This document shows, piece by piece, positions 4,000-26,486 of a stretch of DNA of 34,340 nucleotides. The notes under the pieces are model-generated. The model ran no database searches. It worked only from the letters and a program-made list of their open reading frames with translations, and was not told the DNA's origin. The position numbers and the translations under genes were made by a program. Location: the IMG/VR virus record IMGVR_UViG_3300020045_003826, positions 1-34,340 of that record, one strand, 5' to 3'. Within the stretch, counting starts at the first letter, position 1. The number at the start of each line of letters is the position of its first letter. The stretch comes from a virus. Lineage: Duplodnaviria; Caudoviricetes.

Positions 4000-4071
4000 T
4001 AGCGGTGGGCTGAATCGAACAGCCGAAATTTTGATAATGAGTCAAACGAGATACCACTTCTCCACACCGCA
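4000..4071 (-). tRNA. tRNA-Met(CAT), initiator-like scaffold; CCA not encoded
   Basis: Cloverleaf on minus strand: T-GCGGTG TG GAGA AGTGGTA TCTC G TTTGA CT-CAT-TA TCAAA ATTTC GGCTG TTCGATT CAGCC CACCGC-T A; anticodon 4039-4037. Confidence 0.9.
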
Positions 4072-6884: not shown

Positions 6885-6892
6885 TATTTTTG
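6885..6892 (+). promoter_or_regulatory. Portal promoter -7 box
   Basis: TATTTTTG 18 nt upstream of the portal ATG; divergent from capsid promoter. Confidence 0.6.
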
Positions 6893-6910: not shown

Positions 6911-8137
6911 ATGCTGGATAATTATCAAGACCCAAATTTCTTTGAACGATTAATAGGAGCATTTAGAGGCTCAAAACACGCCAAAAAACAATTTTATAAT
7001 AGTAGAGTACCATACATGATGAACTCAGGTAAGGTTTATATAAATACAGACGTACCGTATACTGTTTATAATTCCATACCTCAAATAGGATTAACGGTTG
7101 ATAAGATAGCTGCTATGTTTAGTAATGGCGTGTTTAAATATCAAAAGATTGGTAGTGATAAGTTTGATGCCATGCCTAAAGAGTTAGCGACATTACTTGA
7201 AAAGCCTAATATATTTCAGGGTCAAAACGCTTTTATGAAACAGTATATTTTACAGTACTTGATTTATGGTAATCAATACATAAGAAAAAACCAAGCAAGT
7301 GCGTTATCTAAAGTTCCAACATCTTTATTAAATATTAGTCCTGCTTATTTAACACCTGTATTAACCGGTAAAACATTTGACCAGGTAGATATGAATGGAG
7401 TAGTTAAGAATTATGAGTATACCGAAAATAGCACAAAGAAAACATTTGAAACTAGCGAGATACTTTGGAGTAAAGTAGCTGACTTAGACAATCCTGTTAT
7501 TGGTTGCAGTCCTTTATTATCGTTACAATTTCCAATATCAAACAGTGAATTAGCTTATAAGTATTTAAACTGTATTAGTGGTGAAAAGGGTGGTATTGGT
7601 ATACTAAGCCAAACTCCTGTAAAGGATGTGTTTGGTGCTTTGCCTAATAGTCCAGAAGCTAAAACAGCATTAGAAAAACAGTATAGGGAGTCAAACGGTA
7701 TTGAAGATGACCAAAAGAAAATACTTATTACAGATGCTCCTATTGGTTGGACTCCTATGAGTTATCCTACCGCTCAATTATTATTATTAGAGCAAATAGA
7801 TGCAAACTTTTTAACTATCCTTGCTAAATACGGTGTTAATTCAAACGTCTTTGTAAATAGTACCTATGAGAATTTAAGACACGGCTTAATGTCAACTCAT
7901 AACGATACGATACAACCTCATGCAGATCAATTTTGTCAACATTTATCAGAGTTTATTGGTATTGATAAGGGTTATAAATTAGTATTGGATTATAGTCATT
8001 TACCGTATTTGCAAGCGGATAAATCAAGTGAAGCTAACGTTTTCAGTACTGTAAGTGCAGCCTTAACGTCATTGTCTACGAGTGGTATTATAACACCGGC
8101 AGAGGGCAAAGTAAGATTGACTAATCAGTTTGGGTAG
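6911..8137 (+). CDS. Portal protein (HK97-like), inverted relative to neighbours
   Basis: 408 aa; LLEKPNIFQ, YLIYGNQY, GCSPLLSL, STYEN, LDYSHLPYLQ motifs. Confidence 0.88.
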   Translation: MLDNYQDPNFFERLIGAFRGSKHAKKQFYNSRVPYMMNSGKVYINTDVPYTVYNSIPQIGLTVDKIAAMFSNGVFKYQKIGSDKFDAMPKELATLLEKPNIFQGQNAFMKQYILQYLIYGNQYIRKNQASALSKVPTSLLNISPAYLTPVLTGKTFDQVDMNGVVKNYEYTENSTKKTFETSEILWSKVADLDNPVIGCSPLLSLQFPISNSELAYKYLNCISGEKGGIGILSQTPVKDVFGALPNSPEAKTALEKQYRESNGIEDDQKKILITDAPIGWTPMSYPTAQLLLLEQIDANFLTILAKYGVNSNVFVNSTYENLRHGLMSTHNDTIQPHADQFCQHLSEFIGIDKGYKLVLDYSHLPYLQADKSSEANVFSTVSAALTSLSTSGIITPAEGKVRLTNQFG

Positions 8138-11762: not shown

Positions 11763-11915
11763 TTAATTTAAACAAATATCTGAAATTAGGTTAATCACTC
11801 TTCTATCTAATTCTATTGATTTCTCTAGGTCTTTTATAATTCTATTTGCGGATTCAAGTGTGCGTATTAGGTTATTGTAATTAGGGCAGGACGAGCAGGA
11901 CAGTATTTGGATCAT
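11763..11915 (-). CDS. 50-aa protein with CxxC and coiled coil, coupled to repressor
   Basis: MIQILSCSSCPNYNNLIRTLESANRIIKDLEKSIELDRRVINLISDICLN*, ATGA overlap; not in track. Confidence 0.55.
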   Translation of the reverse strand: MIQILSCSSCPNYNNLIRTLESANRIIKDLEKSIELDRRVINLISDICLN

Positions 11916-12298
11916 TTATTTAGTTTAGTTATTAGCTCGATTAATTTATTGTTTTGTTCAAATAGTTTGAGATTAAGCCTTTTCAATTCTATTATTTCCT
12001 GAGTTAGTTTGTTGTTTTCAATCTTTAATGTCTCAATATTAGTCAATAAGTAGGCATCCTGTAATGCGTTTGGGTTGCAAACTTCATGCTTCTTATCATT
12101 CTTTTGTTCTTTTTTAATATGTTCGAACACTTGTTTTAGTTGTTCATTTCCATTAATTGCCTTGATTATCTCACTTGAAACGGTTGCATTATCGAATAAG
12201 CCGTATAGCTTAGTTCTACCAATGCCAAGCAGTTTAGCGAAATCAACGCCAGTTAAACCACTTTCTATATAAATTTTATTTAATATATCGCCAGTCAT
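11912..12298 (-). CDS. Putative immunity repressor (XRE HTH + C-terminal coiled coil)
   Basis: GLTGVDFAKLLGIGRTKLY HTH; divergent from early operon; operator-like palindromes adjacent. Confidence 0.75.
   Translation of the reverse strand: MTGDILNKIYIESGLTGVDFAKLLGIGRTKLYGLFDNATVSSEIIKAINGNEQLKQVFEHIKKEQKNDKKHEVCNPNALQDAYLLTNIETLKIENNKLTQEIIELKRLNLKLFEQNNKLIELITKLNK
12120..12129. promoter_or_regulatory. Operator-like palindrome inside repressor gene
   Basis: Perfect TGTTCGAACA, identical to 12364-12373. Confidence 0.55.
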
Positions 12299-12331: not shown

Positions 12332-12388
12332 TATTCGAACAATTCCGAACATTTTATTTGTTTTGTTCGAACAGTGTCCGTACATTTG
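12332..12388 (+). promoter_or_regulatory. Early (lytic) promoter overlapped by four operator-like sites
   Basis: TTTG 12357-12360, N20, TACATTTG 12381-12388; sites TATTCGAACA 12332, ATTCCGAACA 12342, TGTTCGAACA 12364, TGTCCGTACA 12375. Confidence 0.8.
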
Positions 12389-12428
12389 TATTGTCGAAAG
12401 TAAATTTAATAAATCACTACTTAAAAAG

Positions 12429-12436
12429 CAAATATA
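12429..12436 (-). promoter_or_regulatory. Candidate repressor promoter -7 box
   Basis: TATATTTG on minus strand; no clear -33 box. Confidence 0.45.
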
Positions 12437-12694
12437 ATGGAAACAACTACTAAAACTACCACAAGTGATAACTCTCACTTTATCCCAACTAAATTAAAAC
12501 TGTCGTACGAAACATCATGTTGTTTAAATGATAAAGAAGGAACAACAGCATTGTTCACAGCTTACAAATATGATGATAACACAGGATTTAAAAATGAAGT
12601 AGTAAAACGTTACAACAATTATTCATGGGTTTATAGTACAATGATAGTGTTTGCTTGTTCAACTGTTATTTTATTAACTGCCTTAATATTCTAA
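12437..12694 (+). CDS. Hypothetical protein with C-terminal TM helix
   Basis: 85 aa, hydrophobic C-terminus; first early gene. Confidence 0.65.
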   Translation: METTTKTTTSDNSHFIPTKLKLSYETSCCLNDKEGTTALFTAYKYDDNTGFKNEVVKRYNNYSWVYSTMIVFACSTVILLTALIF

Positions 12695-13288: not shown

Positions 13289-13319
13289 TGGTTTGTGTGG
13301 GTTCGATTCCCACGCTTAA
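13281..13319 (+). ncRNA. tRNA-like minihelix (T-arm plus closing stem)
   Basis: GTGGG-TTCGATT-CCCAC (13297-13313) closed by TTAAGT/GCTTAA; no D or anticodon arm. Confidence 0.4.
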
Positions 13320-14760: not shown

Positions 14761-15009
14761 ATGAGCTCAAATACAACCACAACAGACCCACTAACTAAAA
14801 TAGAGAATTTAGAGCGTTACGCTTGCGATACTGCCTTATCAAAAGAAGATAGAGCTTCTATTATTTCAGACATGAATAATCGTACTAGAGTATTATTAGG
14901 TGAAAGAGTTGGATTACCTGCCACATGGTGCGATAGAATGTGTGAATTAGAATCGTTTTACGGAATTCATAAAAACAAGTTTTCGAATAACAAAAAAGCC
15001 CCGAATTAA
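14761..15009 (+). CDS. Hypothetical protein
   Basis: 82 aa ORF. Confidence 0.6.
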   Translation: MSSNTTTTDPLTKIENLERYACDTALSKEDRASIISDMNNRTRVLLGERVGLPATWCDRMCELESFYGIHKNKFSNNKKAPN

Positions 15010-15055
15010 CAGAGCTTATTTGCGTCGAAAGTCAGCAAATGGATTGGCAACTAAC
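14992..15055 (-). ncRNA. Candidate antisense sRNA (~64 nt)
   Basis: Promoter TTTG(15092-15089)-N21-TATATTTG(15067-15060); hairpin ATTTGC[TGACTTTCGAC]GCAAAT; terminator AAGCTCTG-TTAATT-CGGGGCTT-TTTT whose G.U pairs form only on the minus strand. Confidence 0.7.
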
Positions 15056-15091
15056 AGTACAAATATAATAAATAATTAATAAATAAAGCAA

Positions 15092-16147
15092 ATGGATAAT
15101 TTAACACAAATCGAATCTACTGAATTAACAGTAGTCGCTCAAAATTCAGGAATAGAATTTAGTAGAGCTGAACAAATAACATTAAAATACGTGCCTTTTC
15201 TTTTAAAGATTCGGGAAGTAGAAGAACAAAGTAGAAAAATAGACTTTGAAAACCCTACCGATATTGATGAGAAAATTGCCAGAGAATTACGTTTATCATT
15301 AGTTCCAAATAGAACTGAAGCGGATAAATTTAAGAAAACAGAAAAAGCAGAAACTATTTTATTAAACGGCTTACATGATGATGCTTATGGTATTGTCGAC
15401 AAGACAAGTAAATTATTAGAATTAAAATTATCTAATGTTGAAAAGCAGCGAGAAATTGCAACTAAAGCAAAAATTGAAACATTAAGAATTGGACGTGTAG
15501 AATTAATTAAACCGTTTGGCGAACATTACGCAGCGATGGATTTAGGTAATATGGATGACGTCATGTTTGAATCTATTTATTCAGGGGCTAAATTAAGTCA
15601 TGAAGCCAAAATAAAAGCAGCCTTAGAAGTTGAGGCGGCTCGTATTGAAAAAGAAAAACAAGCAGCTATTGAATCGGAAAACCAACGTATTGAAATGGAA
15701 CGTTTGCGAAAAGAAAACGAGATTAAAGAAAAGCAAATTGAACTTGAAAGAATAGAAGCCGCAAAAAAAGAATTAGCCGCAAAAGAAAAAGCGGATGCTG
15801 AATTAAAAGAAGTAAATCGTTTAGCGAAAATTGAAAATGATAAGCAAGTGGCTATTTTATTAGAGCAGCAAAAAGCTAATGCAAAATTACAGGCTGAATT
15901 AAAAGCAAAAGCGGATGCTGAAAAAGCTGAACAAATAAGAATTGAAGATGAAAAGAAAGCTGTAATGGTTGCTGAAAAGAAAGCTGCAAAAGCACCTGAT
16001 AAAGTCAAGATGCTTGTTTGGATTGATGAATTAACGCTACCATTTATTGAGCTAAAACAAAACGAATCCAACATTAAAGCCTCTGATATTAAGGTAAAAT
16101 TTGAAGCCTTTAAAAACTGGGCTAAATCACAAATAGAAACAATTTAA
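15092..16147 (+). CDS. Long coiled-coil protein (recombination module)
   Basis: 351 aa, E/K/A-rich heptads. Confidence 0.7.
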   Translation: MDNLTQIESTELTVVAQNSGIEFSRAEQITLKYVPFLLKIREVEEQSRKIDFENPTDIDEKIARELRLSLVPNRTEADKFKKTEKAETILLNGLHDDAYGIVDKTSKLLELKLSNVEKQREIATKAKIETLRIGRVELIKPFGEHYAAMDLGNMDDVMFESIYSGAKLSHEAKIKAALEVEAARIEKEKQAAIESENQRIEMERLRKENEIKEKQIELERIEAAKKELAAKEKADAELKEVNRLAKIENDKQVAILLEQQKANAKLQAELKAKADAEKAEQIRIEDEKKAVMVAEKKAAKAPDKVKMLVWIDELTLPFIELKQNESNIKASDIKVKFEAFKNWAKSQIETI

Positions 16148-25802: not shown

Positions 25803-26372
25803 TTAAGGAATAACCTTACCAACTCCAAACCTCAAACTTTCATCAGTAGCAACTCCTAAAATAAAACCATGTTTTGCACCTTTCCAATATCCAGAACGTT
25901 TTGCTTTTGGTATTGAATCGTTACGAAGTGATACTATTTTAGTACTGTCCGTATATCGGGTATAGTTTTTAAGTGTAATTACATCTTTTTGATTACCAAT
26001 AATACTATCACTTTTATGCTGTGCTTTTGTTTGACTACTGATAATATTATTGTTTATACTATCAGTTTTAAGGCATTCAACATACAATACTTCAACTGCT
26101 TTTTTACAAGTGGAATCTACTACATAAATAAGGCTGTCATGGATTCTAGTTTTACCGGCAATATATTTAGGCTTCAACTTTAACAAACTATCGGTTTTAT
26201 TCTTTTCAATTCCTAATTCATAAGTTAACCGTTCAACTTCTTTTAGTTTTTGGGCTTCTAATGGATTGGTAATTGTTGAGATAGTCGGTTTTTTGTCGCA
26301 TCCGTTAAAGTAGATTATAACACCTACTAAAACTGCTATAATTATTAGGTAAATATATTTTGGATTTTTCAT
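25803..26372 (-). CDS. Spanin-like membrane/lipoprotein
   Basis: Start ATG 26372; N-terminal hydrophobic helix ending FNGC, coiled coil, Gly-rich hydrophobic C-terminus; last lysis gene. Confidence 0.5.
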   Translation of the reverse strand: MKNPKYIYLIIIAVLVGVIIYFNGCDKKPTISTITNPLEAQKLKEVERLTYELGIEKNKTDSLLKLKPKYIAGKTRIHDSLIYVVDSTCKKAVEVLYVECLKTDSINNNIISSQTKAQHKSDSIIGNQKDVITLKNYTRYTDSTKIVSLRNDSIPKAKRSGYWKGAKHGFILGVATDESLRFGVGKVIP

Positions 26373-26394
26373 AATTGTTTTATATATTTGTACA

Positions 26395-26486
26395 ATAATA
26401 AGTGTAACCCATTTTTTATTCAAATAAAACCTCTCACAGTTTTTTTTATAAATGAGCCAGTAATAGAAATGTTCCTGGCTTTTTTT
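26395..26486 (+). ncRNA. Candidate sRNA antisense to the lysis operon
   Basis: TTTG 26359-26362, N20, TATATTTG 26383-26390; terminator AGCCAG-N14-CTGGC-T7 at 26455-26486. Confidence 0.6.

Follow-up and report, generated by a model that had tools for sequence, protein, structure and literature searches.

The window, the whole 34.3-kb virus record analysed here (34,340 nucleotides), carries genes for head, portal, terminase and lysis proteins, an integrase, a YqaJ exonuclease and a primase-helicase. It belongs to a temperate phage of Bacteroidota, and the integrase matches with a named host are themselves Bacteroidota phages. A tRNA gene (4000-4071, minus strand; Rfam E=4e-9) lies between the head genes, and the portal gene (6911-8137, plus strand), near which divergent -7 boxes are located at 6885 (plus) and 6840 (minus), occupies the strand opposite to the other head genes. 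The features of the switch region and of the early operon are collected in Table 1.

The leftward gene of the switch likely encodes an XRE-type repressor; it has no Pfam HTH match itself, its relatives match HTH_3 and Peptidase_S24, though only weakly or with scores under the curated cut-offs, and one of them bears the name of an XRE regulator. Operator-like palindromes form an array between this gene and the early operon, with a further one at 12120, and the palindrome at 12375 overlaps the early -7 box. Given that transcription in F. johnsoniae begins 4-5 nt after the -7 box (PMC6847099), the early start is predicted at 12393 or 12394. Facing this promoter is a leftward -7 box, the sole canonical candidate for a repressor promoter, which overlaps the bases just 5' of the first early start codon; as predicted, the early and repressor leaders would be mutually antisense over ~31 nt. 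Face-to-face promoters are known from coliphage 186. Farther downstream, in a gap between early genes, a hairpin resembling a tRNA T-arm (13297-13313, plus strand) coincides with a weak tmRNA-fragment match (E=0.019).

Table 1. Coordinates of the predicted features of the switch region, the minus-strand unit and its putative targets.
Feature	Position	Strand	Basis and remarks
Likely XRE-type repressor	11912..12298	-	128 aa, leftward gene; family matches of relatives
Array of operator-like palindromes (12332, 12342, 12364, 12375)	12332..12384		Operator matrix
Early (lytic) promoter -7 box, TACATTTG	12381..12388	+	Box scan
First early leader with its start, as predicted; complementary blocks at 12393-12401, 12427-12433, 12438-12440, 12444-12449	12393..12449	+	Cofold
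Leftward -7 box, probably of the repressor promoter, face to face with that of the early operon	12429..12436	-	Box scan; function inferred
Predicted small RNA, ~64-65 nt	14992..15055	-	Inferred from box and terminator
Intrinsic terminator, minus-strand specific	14992..15017	-	Two G.U pairs; overlap with the ORF 14761-15009 stop
Seed C, in the loop region of the terminator; 10-nt complement of 15122-15131	15003..15012	-	Sequence match
Perfect 6-bp inverted repeat, 11-nt loop with the 9-mer	15018-15023 / 15035-15040		Can fold on either strand
Seed B, the 9-mer, complementary to 12393-12401	15024..15032	-	Sequence match
Seed A, 11-nt complement of the sequence around the gene 15092 start codon	15034..15044	-	Sequence match; partly matches starts 12437 and 14315
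9-codon mini-ORF on early mRNA, covered by the antisense RNA	15039..15068	+	Predicted ORF
Bacteroidota -7 box of the small RNA, TATATTTG	15067-15060	-	Box scan; predicted start 15055 or 15054
Target A, start-codon region of the 351-aa gene 15092	15087..15097	+	Sequence match
Hairpin in codons 9-15 of gene 15092, loop complementary to the terminator loop	15117..15134	+	Fold and match

Within the early operon lies the sole short box-to-terminator unit that the genome scan returned for the minus strand (14992-15055). The initial annotation had placed a promoter, a 6-bp hairpin and a terminator with strand-specific G.U pairs here, and all three were found again: the TATATTTG box, the perfect inverted repeat with its 11-nt loop, and a terminator with two G.U pairs, the plus-strand counterparts of which are C.A mismatches. 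The extent given for the unit, to 15092, was too long, as the predicted RNA starts near 15055 and ends near 14992. The terminator stem (15017-14996) is followed by a U tract, and the fold of the whole unit has a z-score of about -2.8. A sigma-70 scan, which addresses the wrong promoter type, performed at chance level. Just beyond the terminator lies an operator-like 10-mer (14980-14989; matrix rank 14), although operator-like sites with two mismatches occur genome-wide at chance level. A second box-to-terminator unit (26383-26486, plus strand), beside the lysis genes, is antisense to late-strand gene 25803-26411 at its start.

Matches to TAnnTTTG are frequent on both strands, and terminator-like sites between 12200 and 18700 stand at chance level as a set (3 versus 2.6 expected); both figures would suit a unit that makes no stable RNA, its box being a chance or silent one and its hairpin merely stopping stray antisense transcription from the replication genes. 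This we regard as quite improbable, as the box has the TATATTTG form, lies within an AT-rich gap and stands 70 nt from the U tract of the terminator, as in many phage units. Judged by its sequence, the candidate sRNA gene is real and well formed, and its complementarity to targets goes beyond what the initial annotation had noted. Because the predicted RNA overlaps both the stop of ORF 14761-15009, which has neither a PHROG or Pfam family nor a homologue, and the mini-ORF, it would first of all be cis-antisense to the early operon.

The hairpin in which the 9-mer had been placed is, in the folding model, one of two near-equal folds. The inverted repeat and its loop exist, but the stem pairs with a probability of only 0.11-0.17 for RNA starts at 15057-15055, compared with 0.66-0.79 for a start at 15054. 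In the rival fold, which is 0.9 kcal/mol lower, the 5' end is paired with GCUGAC, 7 of the 9 nt of the 9-mer are unpaired, and most of seed A lies in a loop.

The first putative distant target is the start of the early transcript. GTCGAAAGT, the plus-strand form of the 9-mer, occurs exactly twice in the genome, at 12393 and 15024 (0.19 expected; two copies reached in 1 of 100 shuffles), and its copy at 12393 begins, as had been annotated, at the fifth base after TACATTTG. A match of at least 9 nt would arise by chance with a probability of 0.002 in the 17 nt that open the leader, 0.014 in the leader as a whole and 0.05 when both strands of the entire switch region are counted; among the 14 promoter leaders within 8 kb, seed B has p=0.003. 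Since the unit has 15 matches of at least 9 nt genome-wide, the 9-mer is notable for its position rather than its length, and, having been picked from among these after being seen, it is by itself suggestive only. Cofolding of the small RNA with the leader from 12393 yields four in-order blocks of 9, 7, 3 and 6 pairs, which run from the predicted +1 to beyond the first start codon, with a ddG of -18.5 kcal/mol versus -5.9 +/- 2.2 for shuffles; the leader is comparable to the best genome window (-18.3 kcal/mol, among 500 rescored out of 5700). When the 9-mer was held fixed and the 5' 23 nt were shuffled, the two extra in-order blocks (7+6 nt) gave P=0.02 by length, the energy gain from the remaining pairing was not significant (P=0.15), and the 7-nt block is partly forced by the promoter consensus, given that it overlaps the leftward promoter box.

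Two other accounts of the repeated 9-mer were weighed. Were the early mRNA itself the actor, it would fold at 15018-15040, expose GUCGAAAGUC and pair with the repressor leader, thereby lowering repressor levels after induction, with the minus-strand RNA serving as antidote. The hairpin forms on the plus strand as well, the repressor leader would contain ACUUUCGAC (12401-12393) because the only canonical repressor box faces the early promoter, and cofolding pairs the loop with that leader at a net of about -4.8 kcal/mol. Nevertheless, the early 5' end is already a perfect ~31-nt antisense to the repressor leader, the site lies ~95 nt upstream of the repressor start and the energy gain is small, and we therefore consider this course of events improbable. 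Still less credence is given to a role of the two GTCGAAAGT copies as sites, on DNA or RNA, to which a phage or host protein binds; protein-binding sites had been raised in the initial annotation. One copy does lie at the early start and the sequence includes the TCGA core of the operator palindrome, but there are only two copies, they are non-palindromic, and seeds A and C would be left unexplained; as a repressor operator the 9-mer was rejected, its copies ranking 290 and 4854 in the operator matrix (one of whose five training sites was one base off register).

Whereas the first 9 nt of the lytic transcript had been annotated as the target, no short match of the RNA is stronger than that to the adjacent gene 15092, at its start codon. 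This gene encodes a 351-aa viral protein without a family and heads a block with YqaJ, a RusA-like gene and the primase-helicase. The 11-mer of seed A was reached in 0 of 5000 shuffles when compared with this start alone and has p=0.017 with each of the 31 starts within 8 kb as a possible target; as the initial annotation had not singled it out, it constitutes partly independent evidence. The seed A target is present a third time, on a non-coding strand at 2052, which indicates that such 11-mers can arise by chance. The motif AGCA-W(1-7)-ATGG, which was chosen post hoc, is present at 3 of 26 early starts (12437, 14315 and 15092) versus 0 of 30 others, a top-three statistic reached by none of 250 shuffles. 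Together with seed C, the unit has two matches of at least 10 nt within 100 nt downstream, an arrangement found in 0 of 20000 shuffles and in 4 of 3414 real windows. The order of seeds A and C relative to that of their targets rules out one continuous duplex, and a simple tandem duplication is not the expected source of the matches.

With these complementarities in hand, we consider the chances evenly balanced that the small antisense RNA pairs, in the lysogen, with early (lytic) mRNA from leaky transcription and thereby silences it. It would be made in the lysogen, given that its promoter lacks a repressor-type operator (the box coincides with no operator-like site among the top 16 operator-matrix matches). 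It would pair with its own template at the ORF 14761 stop and the mini-ORF, with the start of gene 15092 through 11 nt and perhaps a loop-loop contact at 15122, and, through the four in-order blocks, with the leader of the early message from +1 across the first start codon. Starts of the Bacteroidota type rely on upstream adenines, not on a Shine-Dalgarno sequence (PMC6847099). Pairing may cover such starts, block initiation and convert the mRNA into a nuclease substrate; on induction, the derepressed early promoter would out-produce the small RNA. The link between an antisense sRNA and the early leader, as originally drawn, thus survives as the best reading and gains extra in-order blocks, but the RNA would in the first place be cis-antisense to its own operon.

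A plain cis-antisense unit resembling OOP, in which the RNA or convergent transcription damps the surrounding operon and the short matches are incidental by-products of a shared start-codon motif, the mini-ORF start and chance, is a possible though somewhat doubtful alternative. Such units are common: the strict box-plus-terminator pattern is present in an estimated ~190 IMG/VR stretches, and 19 of 56 distinct units are located, in antisense orientation, between ORFs of one strand. Opposite-strand ATG is enriched in them (43 of 67 versus 30.9 expected), which by itself yields matches to gene starts, and both the 15 genome-wide matches and the very large scan from which the candidate was drawn favor an incidental origin. 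What such a unit leaves unexplained is a match that begins exactly at the predicted +1 and then continues in order (P=0.02), as well as the reversed order of blocks A and C, which does not follow from simple tandem duplication.

By analogy, the silencing RNA is best read as working like OOP, Sar or C4 while belonging to none of them; each of the named classes (OOP, C4, CI and Sar) departs from the unit in at least one defining feature. An Rfam search returned no relevant family, with no c4 model (RF01695) among matches up to E=10, and no antirepressor family was found among the early proteins scanned, many of which have no family at all. Complementarity of a seed to a translation start is present, and exposure of the seed varies with the RNA start site. 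C4 RNA is cut from a same-strand transcript. In P1 and P7 its structure exposes short complementary segments against a ribosome-binding region (PMC12197685), and Rfam lists C4 for Proteobacteria and their phages (PMC2864571). The unit resembles C4 in aiming short segments at starts, but C4 targets an antirepressor message. P4 CI RNA pairs with two separate sites of the early transcript and keeps the replication genes off in the lysogen (PMC4825925), a plan that the unit may share in having two separate early targets and in holding replication genes off. However, CI is processed from the transcript that it controls, whereas the small RNA would have a box and a terminator of its own on the other strand, and CI acts through premature termination, whereas the scans returned no plus-strand terminator beside the targets here. 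The likeness to P4 CI and P1 C4 proposed at the outset accordingly extends to mechanism only, in view of the opposite strand and the Rfam and antirepressor results above.

The 77-nt OOP RNA of lambda is small, cis-encoded and transcribed from its own promoter, lies antisense in the early operon and overlaps the 3' end of a gene (PMC7067206; PMC12197685). Likewise, the terminator loop of the unit overlaps the 3' end and stop of the early ORF 14761-15009; nevertheless, OOP targets cII and favors lysis, whereas no recognizable cII is present here and the unit has additional short seeds for distant and adjacent starts. Decay of the OOP target depends on RNase III. Sar RNA of P22 (68/69 nt) blocks translation initiation by pairing and supports lysogeny (PMC12197685), and the small RNA is of similar size and may also pair at a translation start in support of lysogeny. 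Sar differs in having a single target, ant, with a Shine-Dalgarno start, compared with Bacteroidota-type starts without one (PMC6847099).

No homologue of the small RNA or of the switch was found among the viral and metagenome contigs, GenBank phages and plasmids searched. The repressor led to no relative locus in viral or metagenome contigs or in 5 genomes, and to one 64% relative on a 1-kb contig; gene 15092 has relatives at 4 loci, with the unit upstream in none, and a search with ORF 14761 returned no relative. DNA patterns for the early start, the hairpin and the RNA 5' end gave 4, 22 and 24 matches, respectively, with no homologue among them, although 2 of the 24 were a similar unit without a clear target. 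Over the unit itself, GenBank phages and plasmids gave no match. The query used for the YqaJ gene gave no match in 401 Bacteroidota genomes, and the unit pattern gave 13 matches in 401 Flavobacteriaceae genomes. Loci fetched via the primase-helicase contained the repressor in 0 of 184 cases and gene 15092 in 1 of 184, and a short antisense unit was seen in 1 of the 75 that were scanned, a figure uninformative on the unit because these loci lack this early module.

The primase-helicase relatives have a feature of their own, a sense-strand leader (a box, ~90 nt and a terminator), mostly 0.7-1.5 kb upstream of the primase (L174:1783, L177:6175, L183:9059, L187:2226 and 4805, L254:3522, L257:8935, L258:231, L261:4071, L265:2533, L269:2910, L278:5382 and 8788, and L346:7097). 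In 18 of 18 units picked by eye, representing about ten sequence pairs, a 5' segment of 6-10 nt complements the terminator-loop region; the leader is likely a covarying attenuator or pseudoknot before replication genes. It has no Rfam match in 7 loci and is absent from the window.

Comparable complementarities were sought across the class. From 119 loci, 80 of them with flanks, 48 units were retained after removal of duplicates, units without a predicted terminator and loci below 4 kb; a few of the loci are probably not from Bacteroidota. Matches to leaders were found in 5 of 48 units at p<=0.05 and in 1 of 48 at p<=0.02, and matches to starts in 5 of 48 and 4 of 48 at the same thresholds, so class-wide enrichment for either is weak at best. 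Terminator loops were excluded from this test, which hence missed a case in Porphyromonas. Among 11 antisense-in-operon units inspected closely, the two-loop design was present in that one, and the scanned early regions of four GenBank phages of Bacteroidota were free of antisense units. Short units at L073:8001-8082 (match p=0.003-0.007), L034 and L085 have a free region that complements the leaders or starts of 2-4 same-strand genes. C4-like same-strand units with a 5' segment that recurs 130-215 nt downstream in both direct and inverted orientation were seen at L044 and L047, and those at L039 and L131 resemble them.

The Porphyromonas gingivalis prophages phage016a/017a/018a/019 (L106:7431-7522; L376-L378, that is, BK068097, PP754931 and BK068099) carry an antisense box-to-terminator unit within an operon, both loops of which complement the leaders of 2-3 repeated operator-plus-promoter cassettes upstream. 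One compensatory stem change (G-C to A-U) is present in phage016a; the loops are invariant across the four full loci compared, with no loop-target covariation. The arrangement parallels that of the window in placing an antisense unit in an operon with two loops complementary to upstream leaders. It is no homologue, however, having been found by an architecture pattern with only a short motif in common, and its targets are 2-3 repeated promoters with one common leader. The words promoter, ncRNA and non-coding are absent from the main text of the paper on these prophages (PMC10367356).

A more ambitious reading, which we advance tentatively and consider rather less likely than silencing as such, is that a single 65-nt RNA clamps the whole primary lytic leader, +1 and the first start codon included, while the same seed shuts the start of the recombination/replication block, providing a repressor-independent layer of immunity suited to Bacteroidota starts without a Shine-Dalgarno sequence, whose design would have arisen repeatedly in Bacteroidota prophages, including those of the culturable Porphyromonas. 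Titles and the beginnings of abstracts, among which subscription papers are thinly covered, revealed no antisense RNA controlling lysogeny in a Bacteroidota phage. If borne out, the proposal would mean that, in a phylum prominent in gut and aquatic habitats, the lysis-lysogeny switch has an additional layer made of RNA, and would show how antisense control operates at starts without a Shine-Dalgarno sequence, and the Porphyromonas analogue offers a cultured system in which this design is testable.
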